Below are positions 777 to 59,773 of a stretch of 64,000 bases of DNA, in pieces. Both the position numbers and the translations under genes were made by a program. Every line of letters begins with the position of its first letter. Position 1 is the first letter of the stretch. Under the pieces are notes generated by a model. That model had not been told where the DNA came from and made no database searches. It saw only the letters and a list, made by a program, of their open reading frames with translations. Origin of the DNA: an uncultured Planctomycetia bacterium (GTDB lineage: Bacteria > Omnitrophota > Gorgyraeia > Gorgyraeales > Gorgyraeaceae); contig CAYPYS010000006.1 of assembly GCA_964415355.1 (NCBI GenBank), positions 752 through 64,751 on the forward strand, read 5' to 3'.

Positions 777-777
777 T

Positions 778-2208
778 ATGAAAAAAATATCCAGGATTTT
801 ATTGATCAATCCGCCTCAGATCTCAGATGGAAAATTCCTTGACGGTTATCAAGGTACCAGGCCTGTGCTTCCACCGCTAGGGCTTGCTTATATAGCCTCG
901 TATCTAGAAAGACAAGGTTATAAGGTGGATATGTTTGATGGCATGGTAGAGTCGGCTTCTCCGCAAGAGATAGCCACTAGGACGCTTTCCTATGATATGG
1001 TAGGTATTACCTCTATAACATTTCAGGTAATTTTGACTTATAGAGTGCTTGAAGAGATAAGACGGCAGAATCCAACTATCCCTATTGTCGTAGGGGGTCC
1101 TCATGTTTCGTCTTTGCCTCTCGAGCCGATTGAAAAAGGGCTGGCGGATTTTGTAGTTATCGGAGAAGGCGAGATAGCGATGTCCCAGATAATAAAGGCG
1201 TATGAAAGCGGGGGAGATTTCTTCGCTATCCCGGGAGTAGCCTTTAAAAGAGATGGCAAGATTCATGTGCCTGATGACTCAGGCTTGGTCGATGATATAG
1301 ATTCTTTGCCTTTTCCTGCAAGGCACTTGCTTCCAATGGAAAGATATCGTACGAGTGCAGTGCGCACCAGGCGATTTCCTGCCATGTCAATGATAACCTC
1401 GCGTGGATGTCCCATGAAATGCACCTTTTGTTTTAACAATAAGCCTTATCGCAGGCGCGTAAGATTTGTCTCGGCACCTAAAATGATAGATGAGATGATG
1501 CAGCTTATAGATAAATACGGAGCGAAAGAAATACATTTTTGGGATGATAATTTTCTTATGAACAAGAATCGCATAAATGAATTTTTAAAAATTATGGAAT
1601 CACGCAAGTTATATATTCCCTTTGATTGCGAGGGTATAATAAATGCCTTTGATCCTGAAATATTGATGAGATTGAAAAAGGTAGGCTGTTACAGCGTTTC
1701 TTATGGCATAGAGTCTGGCAATCAAAGGATCCTTGATTTGATGGGGAAGCACACGACTATAAAGGAGATAAGAAGGGTAGTAAAAGAGACCAAGGCGCTG
1801 GGTCTTGATGTGAGAGGATATTTTTTATTTGGGCTTCCCACGGAGACAAGAGAAGAAATCCTCGATACTATAAGGTTTGCCAGATCGCTTAAGCTTACTG
1901 ATGCTACATTTTCTTTACTCATACCTTTGCCTGGAACCGAGATTTACGAAATGGTTAAGGACGAGTCGCAGTTTATGAAAGATTATTGGGATAAGCTTTT
2001 GCTTTCTGAGATAAGTTTTCCAAAGTCCCCTTTGGTATATTGTCCTGATGGAATAAAAGAGGAAGAGCTTTTGCATCTGCATCGATTGGCGTTCAAAAGT
2101 TTTTATTTCCAACCGCGCCAGTTATTAAATAAGATGTTCAGGTGTTTTAAGAGTTACGAAGTTTTTAAAGAGTCGCTTAAAGGGTTAAAATCTTTAGTTA
2201 AAGGATAG
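778..2208 (+). CDS. B12-binding domain / radical SAM protein
   Basis: N-terminal Rossmann-like B12-binding region (ILLINPP...LGLAYIASYL), CPMKCTFC = Cx3Cx2C radical SAM motif; ATG at 778 immediately after upstream stop. Confidence 0.7.
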   Translation: MKKISRILLINPPQISDGKFLDGYQGTRPVLPPLGLAYIASYLERQGYKVDMFDGMVESASPQEIATRTLSYDMVGITSITFQVILTYRVLEEIRRQNPTIPIVVGGPHVSSLPLEPIEKGLADFVVIGEGEIAMSQIIKAYESGGDFFAIPGVAFKRDGKIHVPDDSGLVDDIDSLPFPARHLLPMERYRTSAVRTRRFPAMSMITSRGCPMKCTFCFNNKPYRRRVRFVSAPKMIDEMMQLIDKYGAKEIHFWDDNFLMNKNRINEFLKIMESRKLYIPFDCEGIINAFDPEILMRLKKVGCYSVSYGIESGNQRILDLMGKHTTIKEIRRVVKETKALGLDVRGYFLFGLPTETREEILDTIRFARSLKLTDATFSLLIPLPGTEIYEMVKDESQFMKDYWDKLLLSEISFPKSPLVYCPDGIKEEELLHLHRLAFKSFYFQPRQLLNKMFRCFKSYEVFKESLKGLKSLVKG

Positions 2209-2227
2209 ATAGGTGGTATCAAGAATT

Positions 2228-3580
2228 ATGAGAGTAGCTATTATCAGACCTAGATATTATACGCATCTTGTCACGCCTCCTCTTGGTATGGGTTATGTCT
2301 GCGCTTATCTCAAACAAGCGGGTATAAAGGCAAGTATTATAGACGGCCTCAAAGAGGGGTTGGATAATGAGCAGCTTTTAAGGCGTTGCGAAGATGCGGA
2401 TATAGTAGCTATATTCTGCATGAGCGATTATATCTGGGATGTTATTGACATTAGTAAGAGATTAAAGGGTGCAGGGAAGACAGTCGTGATAGGTGGGCCT
2501 CATGCTACCATAATGCCTAAGGAGACTCTGGGACATACTGACGCAGACTATGCGATTGTTGGTGAAGGAGAAAAGAGCATGTTGGAGCTTGTGCATGCTA
2601 TAAGCAACAAGAAAGACCCTTCGACTATCCAAGGTATTTACTCGAAGGCAACGACAAGATTTTTACCCAGGGAGTTTTTTAATAACCTAGATGAAATACC
2701 TTTTCCTGCGTGGGAGGAGATTGACCCCAGGAGTTATCCGCCAGCTCCGCATGGTGCCGTAGTAAAAGCCTTCCCTGTTGCACCTATTACGTCTTCTCGC
2801 GGATGTCCTTTTTCATGTCATTTTTGCGCCAGCCCTAAGATATGGAAGCGTCAGATAAGGTATCGTTCTGCAAAGAATGTAGTGGATGAAATAGAATTAC
2901 TTGTAAAAAAATATCAGGTAAAAGAGATTCATTTTGAAGATGACAATCTTACCTTAAAGAGATCTCATGTTGAGGGCATATGTGAAGAGATTTTAAAGAG
3001 AAGGCTTAAGGTGTATTGGGCTACACCAAACGGTATACGCGTCGATGCGGTTTCAGAGGAACTTTTAAAGTTAATGAAGAGGAGCGGATGTTACAGTGTG
3101 GCCTTTGGCATAGAATCTGGTTCACAGAAAATACTAGACAATATAGATAAAAAGACAGACTTGAAGATGATGAATTCGGCCATACGAATGGCTCATAGAA
3201 CTGGTCTAATAACACAGGCCTTTATTATTTTTGGCCTTCCCGGAGAAACGCGAAAGACCATAGAAGACACAATAAAAATGGTTATGTCTTTGCCTCTGCA
3301 TAAGTCGCAATTTTTGCTCTTGGATCTCTTGCCCGGGTCTGTTCTATGGGATAGGTTTGGAAATGGCGATATAGAACTGTTCAAAAAAAGGAGTTATCAA
3401 GAGCCTGGATTTATACCTGAAGGCCTTACAGCGGATTATCTTATTAAGGCAAGGACCCAGGCATTCAGAAGGTTTCATTTAAGGCCAAGACAGTTTTGCA
3501 TGATCCTTAGAATGTTAAAGATGAAACAAATTGGGTATATTATGCAAAGGATGAAGGATTTTTATATATTCGGAAAATAA
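2228..3580 (+). CDS. B12-binding domain / radical SAM protein (paralog)
   Basis: VAIIRPRYY...PPLGMGYVCAYL B12-like N-terminus; CPFSCHFC Cx3Cx2C; C-terminal FHLRPRQ motif shared with neighbours. Confidence 0.7.
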   Translation: MRVAIIRPRYYTHLVTPPLGMGYVCAYLKQAGIKASIIDGLKEGLDNEQLLRRCEDADIVAIFCMSDYIWDVIDISKRLKGAGKTVVIGGPHATIMPKETLGHTDADYAIVGEGEKSMLELVHAISNKKDPSTIQGIYSKATTRFLPREFFNNLDEIPFPAWEEIDPRSYPPAPHGAVVKAFPVAPITSSRGCPFSCHFCASPKIWKRQIRYRSAKNVVDEIELLVKKYQVKEIHFEDDNLTLKRSHVEGICEEILKRRLKVYWATPNGIRVDAVSEELLKLMKRSGCYSVAFGIESGSQKILDNIDKKTDLKMMNSAIRMAHRTGLITQAFIIFGLPGETRKTIEDTIKMVMSLPLHKSQFLLLDLLPGSVLWDRFGNGDIELFKKRSYQEPGFIPEGLTADYLIKARTQAFRRFHLRPRQFCMILRMLKMKQIGYIMQRMKDFYIFGK

Positions 3581-8249: not shown

Positions 8250-8696
8250 ATGATAGAAGGTGTTGAGGTTAAGGAGTCAGTTGTACATAGAGATGGTAGG
8301 GGTTTTTTCTGCGAGATAATAAGGCGCTCGGATGATTTTTTTCAGGGCAGGTTCGGTCAGCTTAGCCATTCAATGGCGCATAAGGGAGTATTTAAGGCTT
8401 GGCATATGCATAAGAAACAGACTGACTGGATGTATGTTGCTACAGGAGATATTAAGCTAGCCTTATACGATACACGGAAAGATTCCAAGACAAAAGGAAG
8501 ATTGCAGGAGATGCTAATTGGAGAGACGCATGGTCACAAGGTCATAAAAATCCCACCAGGCGTAGCTCATGGTTACAAAATAATAAATGGACCGATGCAC
8601 ATCGTGTATGTGACAGATAGGGAATATGACCCTGGGGATGAATTAAGGATATCGCATGATGACCCGGAAATTGGGTATGATTGGGTGTCTGATTAG
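8250..8696 (+). CDS. cupin-fold NDP-sugar 3,5-epimerase / 3,4-ketoisomerase (RmlC/FdtA-like)
   Basis: 148 aa; WHMHKKQTDWMYVATG cupin motif resembling dTDP-4-dehydrorhamnose epimerase-like proteins. Confidence 0.55.
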   Translation: MIEGVEVKESVVHRDGRGFFCEIIRRSDDFFQGRFGQLSHSMAHKGVFKAWHMHKKQTDWMYVATGDIKLALYDTRKDSKTKGRLQEMLIGETHGHKVIKIPPGVAHGYKIINGPMHIVYVTDREYDPGDELRISHDDPEIGYDWVSD

Positions 8697-18691: not shown

Positions 18692-20602
18692 ATGTGCGGG
18701 ATTGCAGGAGTCTTATATAGGGATAATAGGAAGGTAGATCAAGGGGTCCTCAAGCGGATGACTGACACCTTGATACACAGAGGTCCTGATGACGAGGGTT
18801 TTTATATTAACAGGTCTGGGAATCTAGGGCTGGGGTTTAGGAGGCTGAGTATCATAGATCTTGTCACTGGGCATCAACCTGTTCCGAACGAAGATAAAAC
18901 AATTTGGACGGTCTTAAACGGAGAGATATATAATTTTATAGAAATCAGAGAGCAGTTAGAGAAAAAAGGTCATATATTCAGCACAAAGGGCGATGCTGAA
19001 GTACTCGTGCATTTGTATGAGGATAAAGGCATTGATTGCCTGCATGATTTAAGAGGGATGTTTGCATTTTGTATATGGGATGATAGGAATAATTTGTTGT
19101 TTATGGCGAGGGATAGGGCAGGCAAAAAACCTCTTGCTTATCTGCAGAAAAACGGATGCATGATCTTTGCTTCAGAGATAAAGGCCATATTGCAACATCC
19201 TGATGTTAGTGCGGAACTTGACATGGGTTCGATGGATCACTATCTGACCTATGGATATTCTTTGCCTGGGAGCTCTATGTTTTCCGGGATAAAAAAGCTT
19301 CCACCCGCACATTATCTTATTTGTGACAAAAACGGAATAAAGATAAAGAGATATTGGGGGTTGAATTATGAAGATAAGTTAAGGTTAAAAGAAGAAGATT
19401 ATGCGGATCTGATTTTAAATAAATTAAGAGAGGCGACGAAGCTTAGGATGATAAGCGATGTTCCTCTTGGCGCATTGTTGAGCGGAGGAGTGGATTCGAG
19501 TGCAGTAGTAGCTTTGATGAGCGAGGTATCCAGTAGACCCGTAAAGACTTTTTCTATAGGATTCAACGAGAAGAACTATAGTGAGTTAGATTACGCAAGA
19601 TTGATCTCAAAGAGATTTAATACCGAACATTATGAATTTGTCGTAAAACCTGATGTCTTGGGTCTTCTTCCGAAGCTGGTGTGGCATTATAATGAGCCGT
19701 TCGGTGACTCTTCCTGTATACCTACGTATTATGTGGCAAATATGGCGAGAAGGCATGTTACTGTGGCGCTTAACGGAGACGGAGGAGATGAGTCATTCGC
19801 TGGATACGAAAGGTATATAGGCTTAAAATTTTCAGAACTCTTTAAAATTATACCAGCGCCGCTTTTGAAATTCTCATATTCTATGTTAACTGGCATAAAT
19901 CGCGTTGCGAATAAGAGCGAGACATCGAGGTTTTCAAAAATATGTATGTATATCAAGATACTCTCGGATTATAAAAAGAGATATATTTATCCTAGATTTA
20001 TATCTTATTTTACCCCGGAAGAAAAGGAGTTTTTATATAATGAAGAATTCAAGAGAAGGAATAATCTTGGCTACTCTTTTGATTTCTTGGCAGATGTAAT
20101 GGATGGTTTTCAAGGCAGGGATACAGTGAATAGGGCAATGGCTACTGATATACTTACGTATTTACCCGAAGACCTTCTGGTGAAGATGGATATAGCTGCA
20201 ATGGCCAATTCGTTAGAAGGGAGATCTCCTTTTCTTGATCATAAGGTTATGGAGGCAGCTTCGAGAATCCCATCGAACTTAAAACTTAGAGGCATCATGA
20301 CAAAATATATATTGAAAAAATCTTTACAACCCATAGTGCCCAAGCAAGTTCTTTATAGAAAAAAAATGGGGTTTGGCGTGCCTCTCCCGAGTTGGTTCAG
20401 AAATGATTTAAAAGGATTTATCCAGGATATCTTGCTTTCCGATGAATTCATAAAGAGGGGATTTTTTAATAAGGTATTTATTAAGAAAGTGCTTGATGAT
20501 CATATATCAGGCAGGCGGAATAATGCTAATAAGATATGGGCGTTATTGAATTTTGAGCTCTGGCACAGAATGTTTATTGATAAATCATGGACATATTCTT
20601 AG
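18692..20602 (+). CDS. asparagine synthetase B-family glutamine amidotransferase (probable sugar/uronate amidotransferase)
   Basis: N-terminal MCGIAG Ntn Cys; SGGVDSS PP-loop; 636 aa. Confidence 0.8.
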   Translation: MCGIAGVLYRDNRKVDQGVLKRMTDTLIHRGPDDEGFYINRSGNLGLGFRRLSIIDLVTGHQPVPNEDKTIWTVLNGEIYNFIEIREQLEKKGHIFSTKGDAEVLVHLYEDKGIDCLHDLRGMFAFCIWDDRNNLLFMARDRAGKKPLAYLQKNGCMIFASEIKAILQHPDVSAELDMGSMDHYLTYGYSLPGSSMFSGIKKLPPAHYLICDKNGIKIKRYWGLNYEDKLRLKEEDYADLILNKLREATKLRMISDVPLGALLSGGVDSSAVVALMSEVSSRPVKTFSIGFNEKNYSELDYARLISKRFNTEHYEFVVKPDVLGLLPKLVWHYNEPFGDSSCIPTYYVANMARRHVTVALNGDGGDESFAGYERYIGLKFSELFKIIPAPLLKFSYSMLTGINRVANKSETSRFSKICMYIKILSDYKKRYIYPRFISYFTPEEKEFLYNEEFKRRNNLGYSFDFLADVMDGFQGRDTVNRAMATDILTYLPEDLLVKMDIAAMANSLEGRSPFLDHKVMEAASRIPSNLKLRGIMTKYILKKSLQPIVPKQVLYRKKMGFGVPLPSWFRNDLKGFIQDILLSDEFIKRGFFNKVFIKKVLDDHISGRRNNANKIWALLNFELWHRMFIDKSWTYS

Positions 20603-20653: not shown

Positions 20654-21346
20654 ATGAAGCTGTCGATAATAATACCTGTTTTTAATGAGAAAGATACGAT
20701 TCTTCCGGTTCTTGATAAGATCCAAAAGGCCTATTCTGGAGAAAAAGAGATAATTATAATAGACGATTATTCTAGTGATGGCACAAGGGAGTTGCTGACC
20801 GAATATTGCAGCAGGCGCGATCATATACGTTTGAGTTTCAACGAAGCAAATTACGGAAAAGGCAGAAGCATACGAAATGGATTGTTGCATGCGACCGGTG
20901 ATTTCGTAGTAATACAGGATGCGGATTTAGAGCTCGATCCAAGTGAATACAATAAATTAATAGCTTTTGGCGTAGAAGAAAAAGGGTCTGATGTAGTATT
21001 TGGTTCGAGGTTTCTCGAGTCAAAAAAAGGAAATGTACCTATAAACAGAGTGGCTGCGAATAAGATACTCACTTCCATGATCAATATCTTGTATGGCAGC
21101 AGGTTAACGGATATCATGACCTGTTATAAATTGATAAAGAGAGACGTGTTTTTGTCGTTGGGCCTGAAATGCGATAGGTTTGATATAGAGGCAGAGATAA
21201 CGTGCAAACTCCTCAAAAAAGGCATTGGAATATCAGAGGTACCAATAGATTATAATCCAAGAAGTTGGGAACAAGGAAAGAAGATACGGGCCAAAGATTT
21301 TTTCAATGTAAGTAAAGCTATTTTTAAATACAGATTTTCAGATTAA
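20654..21346 (+). CDS. GT2 polyprenyl-phosphate sugar synthase-like (DPM1/ArnC-like, soluble)
   Basis: MKLSIIIPVFNEKDTI...IIDDYSSDGT...DADLELDP; ATG at 20654 with RBS aaaagggga; the track's upstream extension is repeat-encoded. Confidence 0.65.
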   Translation: MKLSIIIPVFNEKDTILPVLDKIQKAYSGEKEIIIIDDYSSDGTRELLTEYCSRRDHIRLSFNEANYGKGRSIRNGLLHATGDFVVIQDADLELDPSEYNKLIAFGVEEKGSDVVFGSRFLESKKGNVPINRVAANKILTSMINILYGSRLTDIMTCYKLIKRDVFLSLGLKCDRFDIEAEITCKLLKKGIGISEVPIDYNPRSWEQGKKIRAKDFFNVSKAIFKYRFSD

Positions 21347-21366
21347 AAGGATATAGAGTGTAAGTT

Positions 21367-22785
21367 ATGCTATTCAATTCTTTACAATTTGCCGGATTCT
21401 TCATTATAGTCTATTGCCTTTATTTAGCTATGAATCATAAATGGCAAAACAGAATGCTTCTTATAGCTAGTTTTATTTTTTATGGCGCATGGGATTGGAG
21501 ATTTCTATTTTTAATGTTCGTTACTATAATCACGGACTATTTCTGTGCACTCAAGATAGACGAATCAAAAGAAGATAAAACAAAAAAAAGATTTTTGTTT
21601 TTAGGGATATTCGTAAACCTGCTTATATTGAGTTTCTTTAAATATTTCAATTTCTTTGCCACGAGTCTCCAGGGGTTATTCGGCTATTTTGGTTTTTCTG
21701 CCAACCCGAAACTTCTCAATATAATACTTCCTGTCGGTATATCTTTTTATACATTTCAGGCGTTGAGCTATATCATAGATGTCTATAGAGGAGATATAAG
21801 ACCTACAAAGAGTCTTAGAGATTGCGCGCTTTTTATTTCTTATTTTCCACAGCTTGTAGCCGGGCCTATCATGAGGGCAAAAGACCTTCTTCCTCAGGTC
21901 ATTAGGCCGAGAAAATTATCACTCGAGAAATTTTATGAAGGATGCTACCTTATTTTCTGGGGCCTTTTTCTGAAGATCTTCGTTGCAGATAATCTGGCAA
22001 CTATAGTAAATCCAGTGTTTGCATCTCAGGGGCCTTACAATGCAGCGAGAGTGCTTATAGCGTTATATGCATTTGCATTTCAGATATACTGTGATTTTGC
22101 AGGGTATTCCAATATAGCCAGGGGCCTTGGTAAGTGCATGGGGTTTGATATTATGGTTAACTTTAATCTACCGTATTTTGCTACTAACCCCAGTGATTTT
22201 TGGAAAAGGTGGCACATAAGCTTATCAACTTGGCTTAGGGATTACTTGTATATACCTTTAGGAGGCAACAGGGTATCTGGATTTATTACTTATAGGAATC
22301 TGGCAATAACTATGCTCTTGGGTGGCCTTTGGCATGGAGCTGCATGGACATTTGTTATCTGGGGGGCTTATCATGGCTTGTTGCTTATCATACATAGATC
22401 GCTTAAACCAGTACTTGCAAAACTCCCTGTCCCCAGGAATCCCGTTTTGGAAAGGGCATGGTTTTTTCTGCGCGTTATTTTCTTTTTTCACTTTACCTGC
22501 CTGGGTTGGTTGATCTTCAGGGCTGAATCTGCAGGGCAGATATTTAGTATGCTCGGTAGCTTTGTTTCTGGTTTTAATCTTGGTTCGAATATGGGTCTTT
22601 TTAGCCTAGTCCGATTGATCTGGTTACTGACATTAGTACAATTTATCCAGTTTATAAGGAGGGATAAGATGGTTATATATAGATCAGGGGTAATAGTTAA
22701 AGCAGCATTTTATATAGTCTGTTTTTATTCTATGATAATATTTGGAGTAAATAGTGGAAAAGAATTTATCTACTTTCAATTTTAA
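21367..22785 (+). CDS. MBOAT-family membrane O-acyltransferase (AlgI/DltB-like)
   Basis: polytopic; FYTFQALSYIIDVYRG; WHISLSTWLRDYLYIPLGGNR; conserved His. Confidence 0.8.
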   Translation: MLFNSLQFAGFFIIVYCLYLAMNHKWQNRMLLIASFIFYGAWDWRFLFLMFVTIITDYFCALKIDESKEDKTKKRFLFLGIFVNLLILSFFKYFNFFATSLQGLFGYFGFSANPKLLNIILPVGISFYTFQALSYIIDVYRGDIRPTKSLRDCALFISYFPQLVAGPIMRAKDLLPQVIRPRKLSLEKFYEGCYLIFWGLFLKIFVADNLATIVNPVFASQGPYNAARVLIALYAFAFQIYCDFAGYSNIARGLGKCMGFDIMVNFNLPYFATNPSDFWKRWHISLSTWLRDYLYIPLGGNRVSGFITYRNLAITMLLGGLWHGAAWTFVIWGAYHGLLLIIHRSLKPVLAKLPVPRNPVLERAWFFLRVIFFFHFTCLGWLIFRAESAGQIFSMLGSFVSGFNLGSNMGLFSLVRLIWLLTLVQFIQFIRRDKMVIYRSGVIVKAAFYIVCFYSMIIFGVNSGKEFIYFQF

Positions 22786-23929
22786 GAGATTGCCAGGCGC
22801 ATTTCTTATTGCACTTTCGATTATAGTTATTGTTTATTTTGTCGAGATCTTTATATTGCCAATTAACTTTTTTACTTTTAGAACCTGGGAGGCCTTAATG
22901 GTAAAAGGCCTTCTTCCCGGAGAATTTTATCCTAATATGAAGATATCGATGATTGAAACAGGAGACTTGGGACATCATACTAAATTTGCTGTAGAGAAAG
23001 AAGTAGAGTGGGAGACTGATCGTTATGGATATAGGAAACACGATATAGGAACAATTAGACATCGAATAGTAATTCTTGGAGATTCTGCTGTAGCAGGAAC
23101 AGCGCTTACTCAAGAAGACATGCTTTCAGAGGTTTTGGAGCGAAGACTAAAGGTTAGCGTCTATCCCTTTACTCCTTCTAGGTATCCCCTAGTAGATAGT
23201 TTTTTAAATGAAAAGCGTTTTATTGATAATCCTCCAGATGTAGTCATTCTAGAGAGGATTGAAAAAAAGATACCGGAGTTGTCCGTTTTCAAACTGGATT
23301 TTGAGGCAGGGCACAGATATTCCTGGCTAGAGCGAGGCTGGAAAGATTTTCTAGGCAAACATCAAGATCTTGCAGTATTACTCGACAGGATCTACAAAAA
23401 TAATATGGGTAATTATTTTAAGAGCAGACTCGAAATTATGATCCAGCACCCTGTACAACTGGTTATCAAGCCGAGCCAGAGACATGATTCACCTAGTGCT
23501 GTACGTGGTACAGCAGATAATGGCATGCTCTTTTTGAAAGAGACGGTTGACAGTATGGCTACTGGAATAGATATCTTACCCGAAGACATAGATAGGATCG
23601 CAGAAACCATAGATTCTTATGACAAAGCGTTTAGAAAAATGGGTATTAATTTTGTTTTCATGCCTGTGCCGAACAAGGAGAGTGTTTATTACGAAGAGTT
23701 ACCTATCGAAGATAACAAAAAGCCGAGATTTCTCAAAGACTTGGTCTTGAAATTACGACACAGAGGAGTAGAGGTAATCGATGTGCAGCAGGCTCTTGAG
23801 GAAGCATCTCGAAAAAATAATATCTTGCTTTATCATACAGATGACACGCACTGGAATGCAGAAGGCATAAAGATAGTAGCTGATTTAATCGAGCAAAGGT
23901 TGTACCATATGGGATTTGACTCAAAATGA
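22754..23929 (+). CDS. membrane-anchored SGNH/AlgJ-AlgX-like O-acetylation partner protein
   Basis: single N-terminal TM helix; C-terminal HTDDTHWN motif as in AlgJ/AlgX-type proteins; position immediately after MBOAT. Confidence 0.45.
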   Translation: MEKNLSTFNFKRLPGAFLIALSIIVIVYFVEIFILPINFFTFRTWEALMVKGLLPGEFYPNMKISMIETGDLGHHTKFAVEKEVEWETDRYGYRKHDIGTIRHRIVILGDSAVAGTALTQEDMLSEVLERRLKVSVYPFTPSRYPLVDSFLNEKRFIDNPPDVVILERIEKKIPELSVFKLDFEAGHRYSWLERGWKDFLGKHQDLAVLLDRIYKNNMGNYFKSRLEIMIQHPVQLVIKPSQRHDSPSAVRGTADNGMLFLKETVDSMATGIDILPEDIDRIAETIDSYDKAFRKMGINFVFMPVPNKESVYYEELPIEDNKKPRFLKDLVLKLRHRGVEVIDVQQALEEASRKNNILLYHTDDTHWNAEGIKIVADLIEQRLYHMGFDSK

Positions 23930-25605
23930 CAAGAAGGGAGCACCTGGTGAACAAAAGGACATTTTTGATATGCTTTTTTATTGTGTTGATATTGGCCTCT
24001 TTTCTGAGATTTACCGGACTAAGAGATAGAGGTATATTTTTATGCGACGAAGGCGATTATCTTGCAGGGGGTCGCACGGTCGTAGCTGCACTTGATTTTG
24101 CTTTTAAAAGAATATTCAGTTCAGGAGAAACAGGTATTTCTTTTTCTGAATACCTATCTGAACATGGAGGAGGTTATGCCTCGGCAGTAAAACCTGGATA
24201 TTATCTTCTGGTCGCAATATCTTTTTTGGTAGGAGGCGTACATGATTATTCGGTTCTTTATCTTTCGGCTATATTGGGACTTTTGACTATATTGGTGACG
24301 TCTCTTATAGGGGGGCTTTTGTATAATAGGCGCGTTGCGCTTTATGCTGCTATACTTTTAAGCTTTTCGGTGTACCATATAAATTATTCCCGTTCGACTT
24401 TTTCTGTAGCTGCTGTCGCGTTTTTCCTGTATTTGGGCGTGTATTTCATATTGAAATACTTCAAGGATCTTAAGGCTTCGCATAAAGATAATCCTGTGAG
24501 TTTGATATTAGGCGGGTTTGCTCTGGGTTATTCGTTTTCGTGTCATTATAATTTGTTAGCAACTATAGGCATTATGTTTTTGATCTGCGGATTCTTTTTA
24601 TTTAAATATTCAAAATTAGGTCGCTTAAAACATCTTATCGTATCATTTATTACCCCTCTTGTTTTGCTGGAAATACCTTATTGGGCAGTGAAATATCTGA
24701 CTAGAGGGATGACTGGGGTCACGACAGGCAAGCCATATGCCATAAAGAGTTATTTTGAGCAACTCACTTTTATTTTCAATAAAACGTTTTTTTATACCAA
24801 TAGACCTCAGGCCCCGTTTTTTTCTTATACTGATTTATTGCTTAAGACAGAAGGCGCAGTGGTTGTTTTATTATTTTTGGTAAGTTGTATTTTTATTATT
24901 AAGCGGGATTGGTTTAGAAGAGAAACGGCAGGAGCAGTTTTTTTATTTACCATGGGCCCCCTTATGTTTGTCTTTTTTTCCATGCTTGGCGAAAAAGCAC
25001 CGCGTACCATATTATCTGTTATACCGGCTTTTTGTGTAATAGCGGCGTTATTCCTGGCCGATTTTGAAAAAAGAGTCATTAAGATATTTAAAAACAGATA
25101 TATTGGTTATGGGCTTTTGGTTTTGCCTGTATGGCTTTGTATTATTTTTAGCCAGTTTTTCAATTCCCTCGATTATATAAAATTCAGGTCTCCTTATGTA
25201 AAGGCAATAGAGTTCATAAAAAGACAAGGTGATTATAAACATTTTTCAACCAGTCCGCCTGTTTCAGTGTTTTATGCTGGACTTAAGAATGCAAGTCCTT
25301 ATTGGGATATGAAACTGGAAGAGGCAAAGAGATTATATAGTAAAGAGGGCTATAGGTTTCTTATATTAGAGGTAGGGGAAGAAGGGCAGAGATATAGACA
25401 TGAGCTAGTAGATGTAGTTCTTAGGTCTGGCGTAAGGCCTGCGTTTGAAATTTTCTATAATCCTTTGCCGCTTGCACTGGAAGATCTTTTTTTCTATACA
25501 TATAAAAAAGGAGAGCCGGTTATTATTTATCATAGATACGAGAAAGATAAGCCCGGAGTTTATCCGAGTGTAAGAGTGATAGACCTTAAAGATATATTCG
25601 GATAG
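23926..25605 (+). CDS. GT-C-fold membrane glycosyltransferase (ArnT/PMT-like)
   Basis: about 12 TM helices; DEGDY acidic motif in first loop (CDEGDYLAGG) typical of GT39/GT83. Confidence 0.45.
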   Translation: MTRREHLVNKRTFLICFFIVLILASFLRFTGLRDRGIFLCDEGDYLAGGRTVVAALDFAFKRIFSSGETGISFSEYLSEHGGGYASAVKPGYYLLVAISFLVGGVHDYSVLYLSAILGLLTILVTSLIGGLLYNRRVALYAAILLSFSVYHINYSRSTFSVAAVAFFLYLGVYFILKYFKDLKASHKDNPVSLILGGFALGYSFSCHYNLLATIGIMFLICGFFLFKYSKLGRLKHLIVSFITPLVLLEIPYWAVKYLTRGMTGVTTGKPYAIKSYFEQLTFIFNKTFFYTNRPQAPFFSYTDLLLKTEGAVVVLLFLVSCIFIIKRDWFRRETAGAVFLFTMGPLMFVFFSMLGEKAPRTILSVIPAFCVIAALFLADFEKRVIKIFKNRYIGYGLLVLPVWLCIIFSQFFNSLDYIKFRSPYVKAIEFIKRQGDYKHFSTSPPVSVFYAGLKNASPYWDMKLEEAKRLYSKEGYRFLILEVGEEGQRYRHELVDVVLRSGVRPAFEIFYNPLPLALEDLFFYTYKKGEPVIIYHRYEKDKPGVYPSVRVIDLKDIFG

Positions 25606-25613: not shown

Positions 25614-26309
25614 ATGCATGATTATGACGAGTCTTGGAGTCAATGGCTAGATTGCGAAAAATACGGACCTACGTTGCGTCATCAAAGAAGAAATATAGAA
25701 TTTCTTTTAAAGGATCTTGATTATAAGTCTATCTTGGATGTAGGTAGCGGTAGCGGCGATAATCTGTATCATATGCTGAATGCTAAGAAGGTCGAAGACG
25801 TATGTCTTATAGATGTTTCTTCCAAGGCTTTGGCTAGAGCAAGGACATTGGTACCTGGAGCCAGGCTTGTCCAGCTGGATATACAGAAAGAGAGCGTTGA
25901 TCGTAGGTTTGATATGGTTCTTTGTTGTGATGTATTGGAGCATATACCTAATGATGCAGCTGCATTAAAGAATATAAGAAATATGTCAGATAAATACTTT
26001 GTGCTTTCCACCCTTTCTGGAAAAATGCGCGAATCAGAAAAGCATGTTGGACATGTAAGAAATTACACGTTGGATGGTCTTTTGAGTAAATTAAAAGAAG
26101 CTCGCTTTAAGCCAGTGAAGGTGATAAGGTGGGGATTTCCTTTTTATTCGCCGTTATATCGCAATCTCTGGAATAGATTGCCTCAAGAAATAAATTATGG
26201 AAAATTTGGCTGGTTCAGAAGAGTATGCGCGCAGATGTTATATCTTTTATTTATATTGAATTCTAGGACAAAAGGAGACTACCTTTTTATTTTATGCGAA
26301 TCAGTCTAA
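25614..26309 (+). CDS. class I SAM-dependent methyltransferase
   Basis: ILDVGSGSGDN; VLCCDVLEHI. Confidence 0.65.
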   Translation: MHDYDESWSQWLDCEKYGPTLRHQRRNIEFLLKDLDYKSILDVGSGSGDNLYHMLNAKKVEDVCLIDVSSKALARARTLVPGARLVQLDIQKESVDRRFDMVLCCDVLEHIPNDAAALKNIRNMSDKYFVLSTLSGKMRESEKHVGHVRNYTLDGLLSKLKEARFKPVKVIRWGFPFYSPLYRNLWNRLPQEINYGKFGWFRRVCAQMLYLLFILNSRTKGDYLFILCESV

Positions 26310-26378: not shown

Positions 26379-27074
26379 ATGAAACAAAGATGGCAGAAGA
26401 TGACGGATGGTCTCATTGGAAAAAGGGAATATTTTTTGATAGATACTACGATCTATAGTTTTTACAAGGAGATCACGCGTTATATAGATAAATACGTGAA
26501 AGGCGATGTCCTGGATGCAGGGGCAGGCAGGCTTGCTTTTAAGTATTTGTTAACAGGAAAAGCAAAGAGATATTATGCCATGGATAAATATATTGCCAGG
26601 CAGGGACTGGACATAGTAGGTGACTTGAACTCAAGCCCTTTTAAGAAGCATGCATTCGATACTATAACATGCCTTCAAGTGATAGAGCATGCTAAAGATC
26701 CGGTAAGTATTATAGAGAATCTGGCGGATTCATTGAAAGACAATGGCGTGCTTATAATTTCAGCACCGCATGTCTCATATTTACATAGCGAACCAGAGGA
26801 TTATTATAGATACACGAAGTATGGATTGCATCATATTGCTGAAAAAAACGGGCTTGAGGTACTGGGGATCAGCGTAGCAGGAAGCATATTCGGTTTTTTG
26901 TTTACTCCTATATCGGATTTTTTGCTCTCATATACATATAAGGTGCCGGTAATATTTAATTTAGTATTTTTTGTGAATAGCCTTTTTGTGCGCTCTATAT
27001 GTAAGCTGGACGAGTGGTTTTTTAGAAATTGCATCATGCCGACTAATTATATCATGGTGGCGAGAAAAAAATAA
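26379..27074 (+). CDS. class I SAM-dependent methyltransferase
   Basis: VLDAGAGRLAFKYL; ITCLQVIEHAKDP. Confidence 0.65.
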   Translation: MKQRWQKMTDGLIGKREYFLIDTTIYSFYKEITRYIDKYVKGDVLDAGAGRLAFKYLLTGKAKRYYAMDKYIARQGLDIVGDLNSSPFKKHAFDTITCLQVIEHAKDPVSIIENLADSLKDNGVLIISAPHVSYLHSEPEDYYRYTKYGLHHIAEKNGLEVLGISVAGSIFGFLFTPISDFLLSYTYKVPVIFNLVFFVNSLFVRSICKLDEWFFRNCIMPTNYIMVARKK

Positions 27075-27094: not shown

Positions 27095-28585
27095 ATGAAG
27101 ATTACACTTTTTTGCATAGGTTCGAATTTTACATGTATAGGCCCCAGGAGGATATCTTCTTATTTGAGGTCGAAGGGAATAAAGGTCAAGATAGTTTTTG
27201 TCCAAACAGATCGTAATCTTAAGATTTTACTTGAAGGAGATTGCAAGAAAGATTTGCTGGGCATGGTAAAGGATGATATAGCTGTGGGCATGTCTTTTAC
27301 TTCTAATTACCTAAATGTTGCCGAGACCTTGACCGCGTTAATAAAAAAGCATATGCCTATCCCGGTAATTTGGGGCGGGGTGCATGCGACTGTTTCTCCG
27401 GAGGAGTCACTTAATGTTTGCGATGCTGTTTGTCTGGGAGAAGGAGAAGATCCGATCTTAGAATTTCTTGAGGGTGGAGCCGATATAAAGGGTAATAACC
27501 GGATAGATAATATATGGCTGAGATCGGGTGATCAGATAATAAAGAATAAACAGAGGCCGCTAAGAGTCAATCTCGATCGATTACCTTATCAGGATTACGA
27601 CATCGAAAATCACTTTATTTTAGAAAATCAGCGTCTAAGACATCTCCAGCGTAACGACCTGAAGAGAAATTACGGTTTTTCTCTTACGCGAATGATGACA
27701 TTCGGCTGTCCCTTCAGTTGCACGTATTGCGTAAACAGCAGATATAAATCATTGGATAAGGGAAATTCAAGAATAAGGTCCTATTCAGTGGACTATTTTA
27801 TAGGAGAGACAAAGGATATTTTAAATAGATTACCTTTTATTAGCTACTTACTGTTTGACGACGATGCCTTTTTAAGCTTATCCTCAAATGCCATTGAAGA
27901 ATTTTGCCAGAAATACAAAAGAGAGATAGGGCTACCGTTTGGCATAGGTGGCATAAAAGCCGAGATGGTAAAAAAAGAAAAACTTGCACCGTTAGTGGAG
28001 GCGGGGTTGATAACAGTAAGGATGGGAATTCAAACTGCTAGCGAGAAAACAAACAGGAATATTTTTCACAGGCAGTTCTCTAGAGAAGAAAACTTGAAGG
28101 CTGTTCAGACATTCAAATCGTTAGGAAAAAAGATAAGGCCTCCTTTTTATGATCTTATTTTGGATAATCCATGGGAAGATACTGATGATAAATTGGAGAC
28201 CCTAGATTTTTTTAGGTCGCTTCCGCTACCCTATTTTTTAAATGTTTTTTCTTTAACTTTTTTTCCCGGGACAGAGTTGTATAAAAGGGCATTGACAGAG
28301 AGACTGATAGGCAATTATGACCCCTATAGGCATTATCATGATTTCAAGAAGACATATTTAAATCTCATGATATTATTTTCGAGTCTTTTCAAGCTACCAG
28401 ACAGTTTATATAAAAGGCTCGCCAGATCAAAAAGAATAAGGAATCAAATTAAGGAGTACCCATTTTTTTATTATATCTACAAGACCTTTGATTTATTATT
28501 TCGTTTAATGTCATATTATACTAACCGTAGATTCATTGCTGTACATATGTGCAAGAGGAGGACGTCCTATGAAACGCAATCCTGA
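27095..28585 (+). CDS. B12-binding domain / radical SAM protein (fourth copy)
   Basis: CPFSCTYC Cx3Cx2C; N-terminal B12-like domain; 496 aa. Confidence 0.7.
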   Translation: MKITLFCIGSNFTCIGPRRISSYLRSKGIKVKIVFVQTDRNLKILLEGDCKKDLLGMVKDDIAVGMSFTSNYLNVAETLTALIKKHMPIPVIWGGVHATVSPEESLNVCDAVCLGEGEDPILEFLEGGADIKGNNRIDNIWLRSGDQIIKNKQRPLRVNLDRLPYQDYDIENHFILENQRLRHLQRNDLKRNYGFSLTRMMTFGCPFSCTYCVNSRYKSLDKGNSRIRSYSVDYFIGETKDILNRLPFISYLLFDDDAFLSLSSNAIEEFCQKYKREIGLPFGIGGIKAEMVKKEKLAPLVEAGLITVRMGIQTASEKTNRNIFHRQFSREENLKAVQTFKSLGKKIRPPFYDLILDNPWEDTDDKLETLDFFRSLPLPYFLNVFSLTFFPGTELYKRALTERLIGNYDPYRHYHDFKKTYLNLMILFSSLFKLPDSLYKRLARSKRIRNQIKEYPFFYYIYKTFDLLFRLMSYYTNRRFIAVHMCKRRTSYETQS

Positions 28586-29756
28586 TTTTGAAAATAGAGA
28601 AATAGAGGTATCGGTTGTCATGCCTTGTCTCAATGAAGAAGACACTATTGGGATATGTATCGAGAAGACTAAAAAGGCATTTATCGAGCACAGTATAAAG
28701 GGCGAGATAATTGTTTCTGATAATGGCTCTAGCGATAGGTCTGTAGAGATATCCACGAGATCGGGTGCTAGGGTCGTACACCAGCCATTAAGAGGTTATG
28801 GAAATGCATATATAAAAGGGATAGAGAGCGCAAGAGGAAAATATATAATCATGGGTGATGCGGATAATACCTATGATTTTTCAGAGATCCATAAATTTAT
28901 AGAGCCCTTGAGAAAAGGTGCTGATATGGTTATGGGGTCGCGGTTGAAGGGGAAGATATATAAGGGAGCGATGCCTTTTTTGCATCGATATATAGGCAAT
29001 CCTATACTTTCGGGTATCCTTAATCTATTATTTAAGGCAAAGGTTTCTGATTCGCATTGCGGCATGAGGTCTTTTAAAAAAGAAGTATTTAATAAATTGC
29101 GATTAAAGACACCAGGGATGGAATTTGCATCCGAGATGGTAATAAAGGCTGCAAAGGCAAGGATAAAGATAGTGGATATCCCTATATCATATTATCCCAG
29201 AGAAGGCGAATCAAAGCTTAGGACATTCAAAGATGGTTGGCGTCATTTGAAATTTATGCTTTTATTAAGCCCAAAGTATTTATTCTTATTGCCTGGCTCA
29301 TTGATGTTTGCCTTTGGTTTTATTTCTCTTGTCATGCTCGTAAAAGGCCCGATTATAATACGGGGGCATAACTTTGATCTGCACATGATGATCCTTTCAA
29401 GTCTCCTTACTATATCAGGACTTCAGATGCTGTCGCTCGGTTTGTTCACCCAGATATATGCCCACGATCTATTCGATACCAAGAACAGATTTGTTGCGGT
29501 TTTGATAGAATATTTTTCCTTAGAAAGAGGTTTGTATACGGGTTTTTTCCTTCTGGTTATAGGGTTTATGTTCTGCCTGAAGGTTTATTATAATTATTTA
29601 AACGGTATAATAGGGAATTCTATTTATTACAATGCCAGGCTCGCAGTTTTTGGTACTACATTTATGATATCTGGTATTCAGATATTATCGTCATCGTTTT
29701 ATATAAGTTTTTTAGGCACAAGGAAAGAGCATGAAGATTTTAATAATATGCCATGA
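28569..29756 (+). CDS. GT2 polyprenyl-phosphate glycosyltransferase with C-terminal TM helices (GtrB/ArnC-like)
   Basis: VSVVMPCLNEEDTI...VSDNGSSD...GDADNTYD; 4 C-terminal TM segments; ATG 28569 with aggagga RBS. Confidence 0.7.
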   Translation: MKRNPDFENREIEVSVVMPCLNEEDTIGICIEKTKKAFIEHSIKGEIIVSDNGSSDRSVEISTRSGARVVHQPLRGYGNAYIKGIESARGKYIIMGDADNTYDFSEIHKFIEPLRKGADMVMGSRLKGKIYKGAMPFLHRYIGNPILSGILNLLFKAKVSDSHCGMRSFKKEVFNKLRLKTPGMEFASEMVIKAAKARIKIVDIPISYYPREGESKLRTFKDGWRHLKFMLLLSPKYLFLLPGSLMFAFGFISLVMLVKGPIIIRGHNFDLHMMILSSLLTISGLQMLSLGLFTQIYAHDLFDTKNRFVAVLIEYFSLERGLYTGFFLLVIGFMFCLKVYYNYLNGIIGNSIYYNARLAVFGTTFMISGIQILSSSFYISFLGTRKEHEDFNNMP

Positions 29757-37602: not shown

Positions 37603-38426
37603 ATTATAATGATAAAACAAAAAAAGCCTATGGATTTTTATGGAAAACTCATAAAAATGCCTTATTCATAAATACATGGCATTTTAATGAAGTACAGGAA
37701 AGCGTTTCTGAGCCTATAGTAAGGGGTGGCTTTGGTATAGACATTGGTTCCGGATGTGGTTACGATACATATATTATGGCTAAAACCAATCCTTCAGTAA
37801 AGATATATAGCATGGATATAAGTGATGGAGTATACAAGACGAAAGAATTTAGTCAAGGGTTGGAGAATGTATTTGTGATAAAAGGATCTGTTTTGGATCT
37901 TCCAATAAAAAATAATATATTTGATTTTGCATATTCTTTCGGAGTATTGCATCATGTCTCTGATTCTGAGCGTGGCCTCAAGGAAATAACAAGGACTCTT
38001 AAGAAAGGTGCTCCTGTTTTTTTGTATCTTTACGAAGATCATTCAGAAAATCGTATTAAATATTATACATTAAAGCTGGTTACTGTTTTAAGAAAATTTA
38101 CAGTAAAGATACCTCCTAAAATTTTGTATGGTATTTCATATTTGATTTCTCCTATTATGGTAATTTTGTTTTCTTATCCCGCCAGAATTTTTAATAGATT
38201 TAGAATTTTAAAACCATTATCTGAAAAAATGCCTTTTAATTTCGGAACCCATCTTTTTTCTCTGGTGGGTAGTCTGTACGATAGATTTAGCGTCCCCATA
38301 GAAAATCGTTTTAGTAGGCAGGAGGCTTTTGATTTACTTAGTAAGAATAAATTTACCAAAGTCAAAATTAATAGATTAAGAACAAAAGCAGGGTGGGTGG
38401 TTTGGGGGCATAAAGATAAATGCTAA
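37596..38426 (+). CDS. class I SAM-dependent methyltransferase
   Basis: GIDIGSGCGYDTYIM; FGVLHHVSD. Confidence 0.6.
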   Translation: MLDYNDKTKKAYGFLWKTHKNALFINTWHFNEVQESVSEPIVRGGFGIDIGSGCGYDTYIMAKTNPSVKIYSMDISDGVYKTKEFSQGLENVFVIKGSVLDLPIKNNIFDFAYSFGVLHHVSDSERGLKEITRTLKKGAPVFLYLYEDHSENRIKYYTLKLVTVLRKFTVKIPPKILYGISYLISPIMVILFSYPARIFNRFRILKPLSEKMPFNFGTHLFSLVGSLYDRFSVPIENRFSRQEAFDLLSKNKFTKVKINRLRTKAGWVVWGHKDKC

Positions 38427-40258
38427 AATACGAAAATATAATCTGCATATCTTCTATTGACTGGGATTTTATATGGCAGCAGCACCAGTCTATCATGTCC
38501 AGACTCGCGAAAAATGGCAATAAAGTGCTGTTTATCGAGAACACAGGCGTTAGGACGCCTACAATAAAAGATATAGGTAGGATAAGACGGCGTATAATCA
38601 ACTGGTTTAGTAGCAGTAAAGGATTTAGGAAAGAGGCTGAAAACCTCTATGTGTATTCTCCGTTGATATTGCCGTTTCCTTATTTGAGAATCGCACGATT
38701 AGTAAATAGATTTTTATTACTCAGCCCTATAAAAAGATGGATGAAGGCGGTTGATTTCCATGACCCAATCATATGGACATTTTTACCTACCCCTATTACT
38801 TTGGATTTTACGGAAAACATATTTCACAAGGCCCTTGTCTATTACTGTACGGATAAGTTTTCAGCCACTTCAAGATCAGCTAAAAAGATAACCAGGTATG
38901 AGGAAGAAGTTATGAGAAAGGCTGATGCAGTATTTGTAATGGCGAGAGGGATGGTGGATTATTGTGCCAAATTTAACAAAGATGTTATGTGTATACCTAT
39001 GGGCATTGATGTGGGGAGATTTACCGATGATAAGAATGTTGCTGAACCTCTAGAGATAAAGGGAGTCAGTAGGCCTGTGATCGGCTTCATAGGAGGAGTG
39101 AGGAATTCCATAGACAAAGAGCTTGTTGTGTATCTTGCAAAGAGATTCAGCGGCTATACATTTGTTTTCGTGGGACCTATACAGACGGATATATCTAGGT
39201 TAAAGAGGATTGGAAATGTAATATTTACAGGCTCAAAGGATCACGAGGAGCTTAAAAGATATATAAAATTTTTTGACGTATGCATGATACCATACAAGAT
39301 AGACGATTATACGAATAATATTTCACCTGCCAAGCTAAACGAATATCTTATCATGGGAAAACCTGTGGTCTCTACTAGGCTTGGAGAGGTAGAGCGTTTC
39401 AATAGAGAGAATGGCAACATCTTGTTTGTAGGGGGTAATATAGAAGAGTTCGGAGATCTTATAATACAGGCTGTAGAAAAGGATAGTGATATTTTAAGGA
39501 AAAAGAGAAAAGAAGTTGCTTGTAATAATAGTTGGGACAAGAAGACAGAGAAGATGTCCGATATTATAATGACCGTGATTAAAAGAAAAGAAGAAGCGAT
39601 GGAATTAAATTGGAAGACAGGCCTTATGAGGCTATACCGAGAAGCCAGAGGCAAAACAGCAAAAGCTGTTGTTGCTATTGCAGCGTTATGGTTGATAATT
39701 TTTTATTCTCCTTTATTGTGGTTCATTGCTGAGCCTTTAAGGATTTCGCAGGTGCCGCAGAAAACAGACGCTATAGTTGTGTTTGGGGGCGGGGTCGGTG
39801 AGACCGGAAGCCCAGGCAAGAGCACCATAGAGAGAGCAAGATATGCCGTGAGTTTGTATAAAAAGGGGTATGCCGACACAATAATATTCTCATCGGGTTA
39901 TACCTATATATATAACGACGCCGAAAACATGAGGCTTTTTGCTGTCTCTATGGGCGTGCCCAAAAGAGATATTATATTAGAACAGAATGCGGATAGCGCT
40001 TATGAAAATGTAAGATTTTCCAAGGATATAATAAAAAGAAATGACTGGGATTCCATATTACTGGTCAGCTCGCCTTACAATATGCGTCGTGCTTCGCTTG
40101 TTTTTAATAAATGGGATCCTGATATAAAAGTTACCTATACTCCTGTGCCTGATAGCCAGTTTTATGATAAAAGCAAAGGTGTGAGGCTGGAACAGATACG
40201 AGCAATCGCTCACGAGTATTTGGGGATAATATATTATTTAATAAAAGGGCATATCTAA
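38420..40258 (+). CDS. GT4-like glycosyltransferase fused to C-terminal DUF218 (ElyC/YdcF/SanA-like) domain
   Basis: N-terminal 400 aa GT-B-like; C-terminus TDAIVVFGGGVGETGSPG...IIFSSGYTY...LLVSSPYNMRRA matches DUF218 signature. Confidence 0.5.
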   Translation: MLKYENIICISSIDWDFIWQQHQSIMSRLAKNGNKVLFIENTGVRTPTIKDIGRIRRRIINWFSSSKGFRKEAENLYVYSPLILPFPYLRIARLVNRFLLLSPIKRWMKAVDFHDPIIWTFLPTPITLDFTENIFHKALVYYCTDKFSATSRSAKKITRYEEEVMRKADAVFVMARGMVDYCAKFNKDVMCIPMGIDVGRFTDDKNVAEPLEIKGVSRPVIGFIGGVRNSIDKELVVYLAKRFSGYTFVFVGPIQTDISRLKRIGNVIFTGSKDHEELKRYIKFFDVCMIPYKIDDYTNNISPAKLNEYLIMGKPVVSTRLGEVERFNRENGNILFVGGNIEEFGDLIIQAVEKDSDILRKKRKEVACNNSWDKKTEKMSDIIMTVIKRKEEAMELNWKTGLMRLYREARGKTAKAVVAIAALWLIIFYSPLLWFIAEPLRISQVPQKTDAIVVFGGGVGETGSPGKSTIERARYAVSLYKKGYADTIIFSSGYTYIYNDAENMRLFAVSMGVPKRDIILEQNADSAYENVRFSKDIIKRNDWDSILLVSSPYNMRRASLVFNKWDPDIKVTYTPVPDSQFYDKSKGVRLEQIRAIAHEYLGIIYYLIKGHI

Positions 40259-47734: not shown

Positions 47735-47743
47735 TTTTTCGCT

Positions 47744-48253: not shown

Positions 48254-48263
48254 GGTTTTTTTG

Positions 48264-58105: not shown

Positions 58106-59773
<1,668 letters not shown>

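Follow-up and report, generated by a model that had tools for sequence, protein, structure and literature searches.

The question raised by the locus described here is whether four genes lying in series encode one pathway or the interleaved parts of two. They occupy positions 20654-25605 of a 64,000-nucleotide stretch of DNA (the window) from an uncultured bacterium, probably a member of the Omnitrophota, and they encode, in this order, a GT2 glycosyltransferase (GT2a), an MBOAT acyltransferase, an SGNH protein and a GT-C membrane glycosyltransferase (GT-C1). An earlier note on this DNA had read the series as a composite of O-acetylation machinery and transfer from a lipid-linked sugar. The explanation favoured here, with a probability of roughly 0.7, is that the genes make up two separate two-gene modules for the modification of a cell-envelope glycan outside the inner membrane (the MBOAT with its SGNH partner, and GT2a with GT-C1), interleaved in a glycan cluster that extends over more than 47 kb. 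The host is regarded as a diderm because a TonB-dependent receptor is encoded at position 55053. Domain identities, the conservation of motifs, the fold of the SGNH protein and two independent patterns of synteny were all observed here and carry this explanation.

Gene content and organisation of the locus

The gene encoding GT2a (20654..21346, + strand) specifies a GT2 of 230 amino acids without membrane helices. It is followed on the same strand by the genes encoding the MBOAT (21367..22785, 472 amino acids), the membrane-anchored SGNH partner (22754..23929, 391 amino acids) and GT-C1 (23926..25605, 559 amino acids). Domain calls were made at the Pfam gathering thresholds and all four proteins scored above them; the series exists as the earlier note had laid it out, and the four open reading frames (ORFs) are real genes and not chance ones.

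The four genes are co-oriented and close-packed or overlapping, with all intergenic gaps among them at or below 20 nt. GT2a starts with an ATG placed after a GGGGAG ribosome-binding site, the longest ORF beginning at a TTG at 20624. The SGNH gene starts with a GTG after GGAG and overlaps the 3' end of the MBOAT gene by 32 nt, and it shares a further 4 nt with the gene encoding GT-C1. Every sizeable gene of the window is on the + strand. No excess of promoter-like or terminator-like sites over the shuffled expectation was seen from 16 to 35 kb, which fits one long operon. In a hydropathy scan GT2a showed no membrane helix and the SGNH protein a single N-terminal anchor, and about nine hydrophobic segments were seen in each of the MBOAT and GT-C1. 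The window has a GC content of about 38%, and a horizontally acquired island was rejected as the GC content is uniform across the region (36-39%) and gives no sign of foreign origin.

Synteny of the two gene pairs

Relatives of the SGNH protein are encoded in 82 non-redundant loci and in 77 of them an MBOAT gene lies directly upstream on the same strand, mostly with a gap of -4 to +16 nt; of the five remaining loci, three lie at the end of a contig. The taxa in which this pair occurs include the Omnitrophota, Thermodesulfobacteriota/Syntrophia, Pontibacter, Elusimicrobia, the Candidate Phyla Radiation (CPR), Planctomycetota and others. The nearest named relatives of the SGNH gene belong to metagenome-assembled genomes of Candidatus Omnitrophota (65% and 55% identity). 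No orthologue of GT-C1 was found near the 77 MBOAT-SGNH pairs, and mostly no GT-C at all is present within 8 kb of them.

The second pattern concerns GT2a and GT-C1. A locus search with a 13-sequence alignment of GT-C1 gave 12 metagenome loci. The closest orthologues (L007/L008 and L090-L092), from relatives that probably also belong to Candidatus Omnitrophota, are 55-59% identical to GT-C1. The gene order in these closest loci is GT4, methyltransferase, AsnB, (radical S-adenosylmethionine (SAM) enzyme), GT2a, GT-C1, methyltransferases and radical SAM enzyme, GT2b, GT4, GT-C2 and GT-C3, so named after their counterparts in the window that are described below. GT2a abuts GT-C1 in all of them, with no MBOAT or SGNH gene in between, and the order AsnB-(radical SAM)-GT2a-GT-C1 is kept in L007, L090 and L091. 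Moreover, the loci of distant GT-C1 relatives (L094, L089) have a small GT2a-like gene that is adjacent or one gene off.

The acyl pair has a place of its own in the Omnitrophota relative UBA10183 (L002/L009), where it stands elsewhere, after a gene for an unusual GT4-DUF218 fusion. The counterpart of this fusion gene in the window (38420..40258, + strand, 612 amino acids; L002 also carries the fusion) directly precedes methyltransferases. The presence of the acyl pair inside the sugar pair is seen in this lineage only. Given the MBOAT-SGNH pairing in 77 of the 82 loci and the abutment of GT2a and GT-C1 in the closest relatives, the four-gene series is a lineage-specific interleaving of two independently conserved pairs and not one inherited unit. 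A single conserved four-gene module was rejected on these synteny counts.

Another explanation of such an arrangement would be that the four genes form one coupled pathway, in which the MBOAT and SGNH proteins acylate the side-branch sugar installed by GT-C1, or the polyprenyl phosphate-sugar donor itself. This would account for the insertion of the pair between GT2a and GT-C1. The overlapping or 20-nt junctions and the lack of a terminator excess also speak for it, as co-transcription and translational coupling of all four genes are probable, and in L002, the closest relative, another small GT2 and a PMT_2 GT-C are encoded two genes past the MBOAT-SGNH pair. Nevertheless, co-transcription within a 47-kb operon says little about shared substrates. 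In addition, the gene order is unique to this lineage, GT2a meets GT-C1 without the acyl pair in L007 and L090-L092, and the 77 pairs found elsewhere mostly have no GT-C within 8 kb. Taken with these observations, a coupled pathway is considered unlikely.

The small GT2 found upstream of MBOAT-SGNH pairs is another recurrent association. In loci of the Thermodesulfobacteriota type (L004/L005, L011, L013, L016, L017, L019, L021 and L022) a GT2 of about 240 amino acids, closest to GT2b, is encoded about 0.4-1.8 kb upstream of the pair, and in L004/L005, the two loci with gene calls, the intervening genes encode a methyltransferase and a DUF2304 small membrane protein.

The MBOAT acyltransferase and its SGNH partner

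The acyltransferase identity that had been proposed for the second gene is borne out by a match to PF03062 (1.5e-25) and by two histidines, H283 (in RWHISL) and H323 (in WHG), which align with those of DltB (8jem/6bug). DltB is the sole solved relative of the protein (about 5e-29). The last six residues of the MBOAT, FIYFQF (467-472), correspond to the FxYxxF acyl-shuttle motif with Tyr469 as its tyrosine. The motif is C-terminal in 75 of the 77 partner MBOATs from the SGNH-family loci and reads exactly FIYFQF in 74. In bacterial MBOATs with SGNH partners the C-terminal FxYxxF tyrosine is auto-acetylated from acetyl-CoA and is then the donor to the SGNH serine, as described in 2025 for PatA/PatB (PMC12148441); the Dlt system is the only one in which the motif belongs to a microprotein of its own (DltX) and a carrier protein takes part (PMC12148441). 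One metagenome contig (L097, 22-2728) encodes an MBOAT ending in FIYFQF that is followed, in place of the SGNH gene, by an overlapping gene for a 612-amino-acid membrane protein distantly like GT-C1.

The SGNH protein has an N-terminal signal-anchor (residues 17-35) and a match to the Pfam family ALGX (8.5e-13, 49 bits) over residues 282-381 only. Almost all of its 115 homologues are tagged PF16822, and several were named AlgJ by the Joint Genome Institute (JGI). In an alignment of 60 sequences G109, S111 (the GDS of block I), H366 and W367 are invariant and D364, K308 and N368 nearly so. The protein thereby displays the signature residues P306-x-K308 and D364-T-H366-W367, and the catalytic residues that the earlier note had suggested searching for, those of the DxHW motif and Ser111, are conserved throughout or nearly throughout the 60 homologues. 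The AlphaFold (AF2) model built on the same alignment reached a predicted local distance difference test score (pLDDT) of 90.9 and a predicted template modelling score (pTM) of 0.89. When this model was compared by Foldseek with the PDB it matched canonical SGNH/GDSL esterases in alignments of about 290-350 columns, the target TM-scores reaching 0.67, and AlgJ over 150 columns only. The expectation that 22754..23929 encodes an SGNH/AlgX-type fold therefore held.

A phmmer search of the SGNH protein against the PDB sequences gave no meaningful match, and a family profile was required to reach solved structures. With the profile the best of these were AlgJ (4o8v, 3.5e-14), PatB1 (8.6e-9) and AlgX (1.5e-5). 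AlgJ 4o8v is matched in two swapped stretches: profile positions 240-364 (PxPxK ... DTHW) fall on AlgJ 16-142, and positions 122-191 (PdIVIlEsvER) on AlgJ 231-302 (PQVVVWEFPER). Moreover, the spacing of 56 residues between K308 and D364 is the same as that between K134 and D190 of PpAlgJ. AlgJ, AlgX and the PatB1 of B. cereus are circularly permuted, with the order H-S-G-N and a DxH block V (PMC9487903; PMC4148444). In the SGNH protein the nucleophile Ser111, part of the N-terminal GDS, comes before Asp364-x-His366, and the permuted order of the AlgX/AlgJ family is not found. By these profile alignments the protein is a true homologue of AlgJ and PatB1 in the canonical, unpermuted, Ser-first order. 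The description of the third gene as an AlgJ/AlgX-like SGNH partner can thus be kept as regards homology to AlgJ, and has to be given up as regards the permuted order of AlgJ and AlgX. No description of unpermuted AlgJ/PatB1 relatives was found in the searchable literature, which is weak evidence.

The similarity to DltB and AlgJ could suggest a Dlt-like D-alanylation system or an AlgI/AlgJ system for alginate. DltB is the sole NCBIfam model as well as the sole solved structure matched by the MBOAT, homologues of the SGNH protein are publicly annotated as AlgJ, and, as with DltB/DltD, an MBOAT core whose nearest solved counterpart is DltB goes with an SGNH partner that is N-terminally anchored and Ser-first like DltD. 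However, the DltB model is matched at 165 bits, far below its cut-off of 375 bits, and the shuttle motif forms part of the MBOAT itself, which is the arrangement of systems that use acyl-CoA. Parts of a Dlt system are missing: there are no genes for DltA, DltC and DltX here, the gaps of at most 20 nt within the series leave no room for DltX or DltC, DltA and DltC are not encoded elsewhere in the window, the SGNH protein has no Pfam DltD match and the host is a diderm. As to alginate, the SGNH protein is not permuted in the manner of AlgJ and no alg8, alg44, algK, algE, algG, algL, algF or algX is present among the ORFs of the window. Both systems were rejected, and the chance that either of them is encoded here is considered very slight.

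The paradigm for MBOAT-SGNH pairs is PatA/PatB, the peptidoglycan O-acetyltransferase of Gram-negative bacteria (PMC12148441), and the pair in the window shares with it an MBOAT with a catalytic His and a fused C-terminal FxYxxF tyrosine shuttle, a separate extracytoplasmic SGNH partner that is Ser-first, the adjacency of the two genes and the lack of a carrier protein or microprotein. Unlike PatB, which has DxxH, the SGNH partner is homologous to AlgJ and PatB1 (DxHW, P-x-K). The context also differs, being that of a giant glycan cluster in which the acceptor is probably a polysaccharide and not peptidoglycan. From AlgI/AlgJ/AlgX (alginate), WssH/WssI (cellulose) and PatA1/PatB1 of B. cereus (secondary cell-wall polysaccharide) come the closest parallels to the N-terminal membrane anchor and to the AlgJ signature residues with their identical spacing. 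Nevertheless, block I is GDS and not GTSYS or KDS, and the order is unpermuted. AlgF is absent here, as are a second SGNH protein, a carbohydrate-binding module and genes for an alginate or cellulose synthase.

It is possible, on a tentative reading that we hold with less than even confidence, that the SGNH partner stands for a widespread and uncharacterised branch of the AlgJ/AlgX/PatB1 family that keeps the ancestral Ser-first order and already has DxHW and P-x-K. If this were true, the circular permutation of AlgJ-type acetyltransferases would have arisen inside an MBOAT-coupled family. On the same reading, the position of the pair between the genes for a lipid-sugar synthase and its GT-C may also mark a coupled step in which a sugar is added and then acylated.

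GT2a and the GT-C1 membrane transferase

GT2a belongs to PF00535 (Glycos_transf_2, 3.2e-32) and has its DxD motif at residues 89-91 (D89-A-D91). Its closest solved relatives are the dolichol phosphate mannose (Dol-P-Man) synthase of P. furiosus (5mlz, 1.6e-16, 63.6 bits, query residues 1-225) and three ArnC entries (about 1e-15, 60-62 bits). Other GT2s are matched over the N-terminal 90-135 residues only, with at most 38 bits. The top NCBIfam matches are AglJ, ArnC, PgfS, Dol-P-hexose transferase and PpgS, and GT2a is 34% identical to GT2b, a second GT2 of the cluster, across the whole catalytic domain. These similarities make GT2a a candidate polyprenyl-phosphate sugar synthase of the DPM1/ArnC/PpgS type. 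This agrees with the earlier suggestion of a soluble synthase-like GT2, as the protein has no membrane helix and, along the entire catalytic domain, its nearest relatives are Dol-P-Man synthase and ArnC.

GT-C1 scored 33.4 bits (4.5e-08) against Pfam PMT, the cut-off being 22.7 bits, and 30 bits against PMT_2, the cut-off being 26.1 bits. It has a positively charged N-terminus, about nine hydrophobic segments (GT-C enzymes having 7-13 helices) and a soluble C-terminal part of about 130 amino acids that is presumably periplasmic. The pair D41-E42 lies within the first loop after the first transmembrane segment (TM1). Across 62 diverse homologues there is hardly any variation at D41, K89 and R156, and close homologues also conserve E42. 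Word-index searches with GT-C1, both as a single sequence and as a profile, returned 6 close clusters only, and an exhaustive search returned 1582 cluster representatives at E<=1e-3. No meaningful match of GT-C1 to the PDB sequences was obtained by phmmer, and the similarity to solved GT-Cs exists at the profile level only. The top solved match of the 62-sequence profile is ArnT (5ezm, 2e-5, positions 11-394), with DEG.Y of GT-C1 aligned onto DEGRY of ArnT; lower matches are TMEM260 (0.0052) and AglB (0.0055). GT-C1 also matches weakly the Agl23 flippase-associated family (25.8 bits). From these profiles we infer a GT-C fold for GT-C1. The proposal of an ArnT- or PMT-like GT-C membrane transferase finds support in the PMT and PMT_2 scores above cut-off and in ArnT as the top profile match.

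Several observations weigh against this assignment of the two proteins. The equivalog scores of GT2a in NCBIfam are all far below the cut-offs, and GT2a has no hydrophobic segment, unlike GtrB, ArnC and the archaeal Dol-P-Man synthases with their membrane helices. The fold of GT-C1 depends on weak Pfam scores and the 2e-5 profile match, and its AF2 model, built from a 6-sequence alignment of close homologues, has a pLDDT of 38.9. Furthermore, no flippase (of the GtrA, SMR or MATE type), Wzx, Wzy or ABC exporter is present in the approximately 48 kb of the cluster that lie within the window. The only small + strand ORFs in the window are one encoding an RmlC-like protein at 8250 and an unassigned one at 43424 whose product is not a membrane protein, and none is polytopic. 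Export genes of the cluster may lie upstream of the start of the window. The relative L002 carries a Polysacc_synt (Wzx-type) gene.

Some of these observations would suit a different assignment, in which GT2a is an ordinary cytoplasmic GT2 that extends a repeat linked to undecaprenyl pyrophosphate, and GT-C1 uses another donor, being polymerase-like, ligase-like or associated with a flippase as Agl23 is. The absence of a membrane segment, the scores below every equivalog cut-off, the Agl23 match and the lack of a flippase are all in its favour. However, the full-length similarity of GT2a is specific to polyprenyl-phosphate sugar synthases, other GT2s reaching only the N-terminal half, and short synthase models without membrane helices exist (PpgS with 226 and Dol-P-hexose transferase with 213 profile positions). 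In addition, linkage of a small GT2 gene to one of the GT-C1 type recurs among distant loci. An ordinary GT2 thus appears rather improbable, and the pairing of a synthase with its GT-C is preferred.

The PMT match raises a further point, namely whether GT-C1 could be a protein O-glycosyltransferase of the PMT/TMEM260 type that acts on envelope proteins with a donor supplied by GT2a. Actinobacterial Ppm1/Pmt pairs glycosylate proteins from a polyprenyl phosphate-sugar and would be a precedent, and the second-best solved match of the profile is the protein O-mannosyltransferase TMEM260. The top match is ArnT, nevertheless, and the gene lies amid about 20 glycosyltransferases, sugar-nucleotide enzymes and a WecA-type initiator, with no obvious gene for a target protein adjacent to it. 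Protein O-glycosylation is accordingly held to be improbable, and a glycan acceptor is preferred.

The gene pair itself is comparable to GtrA/GtrB/Gtr*, ArnC/ArnEF/ArnT, the mycobacterial PpgS/Rv3779 and ORF12-15 of Citrobacter (PMC11127046), in that a GT2 most like polyprenyl-phosphate sugar synthases neighbours a GT-C whose first loop carries an acidic motif, in a cluster of the O-antigen or exopolysaccharide type. The PpgS-type synthases are short, like GT2a, which differs from GtrB and ArnC in having no membrane helices. Unlike in three-component systems of periplasmic glycosylation, no flippase gene was found in the window, and two synthase-like GT2s and three GT-Cs are present. The composite described in the earlier note can therefore be retained in its parts, given the relatives of GT2a (Dol-P-Man synthase and ArnC) and the ArnT match of the GT-C1 profile, and has to be abandoned as one module in favour of two pairs that are independent by synteny.

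Proposed mechanism and significance

What is proposed here on the acyl group, sugar, acceptor, topology and reaction order is inferred from characterised systems. By analogy to PatA/PatB, the MBOAT would use His323 on the cytoplasmic side of the membrane to take an acyl group from acyl-CoA, acetyl from acetyl-CoA being the most likely. The group would then be moved to Tyr469 in the extracytoplasmic C-terminal FIYFQF tail of the MBOAT, accepted by Ser111 of the anchored SGNH partner (putative triad Ser111/Asp364/His366) and passed on to a hydroxyl of the exported glycan. In the sugar module, by analogy to PpgS/Rv3779, ArnC/ArnT and GtrB/Gtr*, a peripheral GT2a would load a nucleotide-activated sugar onto polyprenyl phosphate at the membrane surface, a transporter would flip the lipid-linked sugar, and GT-C1 would use its acidic Asp41-Glu42 loop to attach the sugar to the glycan at the periplasmic face.

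The enzymes are ordinary examples of established systems for the modification of envelope glycans, and only three features are mildly unusual: the AlgJ homologue is unpermuted, no flippase can be recognised, and one gene pair has been inserted into the other. The addition at the level of mechanism is small, as acylation by MBOAT-SGNH pairs and periplasmic glycosylation by GT2/GT-C pairs are both established for bacterial surface glycans. For annotation the value lies in a functional assignment at the level of motifs for genes of an uncultured lineage. Moreover, proteins labelled AlgJ in metagenomes can be recognised as a distinct unpermuted relative that is paired with an MBOAT in many phyla, including the cultured Pontibacter. 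The locus also illustrates clearly how modules are shuffled within a very large glycan cluster.

The surrounding glycan cluster

The region from position 1 to about 47.7 kb is one giant cluster for glycan biosynthesis with about 20 glycosyltransferases. Its initiating enzyme, encoded at 44856, is a WecA-type transferase that carries a fused CoA_binding_3 domain. There are genes for about a dozen GT4 enzymes and for several GT2s, together with those for a UDP-GlcNAc 2-epimerase, RmlC-like and RmlD-like proteins and several SDR epimerases/dehydratases. The SAM methyltransferase-like genes of the cluster number nine and the B12-binding or radical SAM genes at least four, and an AsnB-type amidotransferase is also encoded. 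The number of methyltransferase-like genes suggests a heavily methylated glycan. One of the cluster genes (11678-13651, + strand) encodes an unusual GT2-SAM methyltransferase fusion of 657 amino acids. A 148-amino-acid ORF (8250-8696, + strand) matches dTDP_sugar_isom with 86 bits and, over the same residues, Polysacc_synt_C with 32 bits, above cut-off; the latter match is probably spurious.

Directly upstream of the four genes, an AsnB-type glutamine amidotransferase is encoded at 18692..20602 on the + strand (Asn_synthase, 4e-102; Eps_aminotran_1, 621 bits, below the cut-off of 816.9 bits). The AsnB-type gene is conserved in this place, upstream of GT2a/GT-C1, and its product may amidate a uronic acid of the glycan. 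Downstream of GT-C1 follow, all on the + strand, genes identified by Pfam as encoding two SAM methyltransferases (25614..26309 and 26379..27074) and a B12-binding radical SAM enzyme (27095..28585), the orthologues of which are also downstream of GT-C1 in L007, L090 and L091.

GT2b (28536..29756, + strand, 406 amino acids) matches AglJ with 162 bits, Dol-P-hexose transferase with 106 bits and PpgS with 78 bits. It has about 3-4 C-terminal hydrophobic segments that form a membrane tail as in Dol-P-Man synthase, and its orthologue in L007 carries PF26629 (GT2_TM_C). Two further GT-Cs are encoded on the + strand, GT-C2 (30860..32203; PMT_2, 36.9 bits) and GT-C3 (32193..33542; PMT_2, 26.0 bits, marginally under the cut-off of 26.1). 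The order GT2b-GT4-GT-C2-GT-C3 is conserved in L007. The cluster therefore has in total two candidates for lipid-sugar synthases, GT2a and GT2b, and three GT-Cs, and GT2b with GT-C2 and GT-C3 probably represents a second synthase/GT-C set.

Other features of the window

An operon for the uptake and salvage of B12 (genes 47729-56918) comes after a cobalamin riboswitch (48350-48524, + strand; Rfam RF00174, 88.7 bits). It includes a BtuF/BtuC/BtuD-like transporter, CobC/U/T/S-type genes and the TonB-dependent receptor, with CobA/BtuR just upstream. This B12 supply operon directly follows the glycan cluster, in which the B12-binding or radical SAM genes are at least four in number (42..776, partial; 751..2208; 2213..3580; 27095..28585). 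Genes for a MoxR-type AAA ATPase, a DUF58 protein and a TgpA_N-like membrane protein stand in a row (59977-63852, + strand) after GroEL (58130..59773) and are unrelated to the glycan cluster. The same DNA is present in the JGI metagenome 3300009374.

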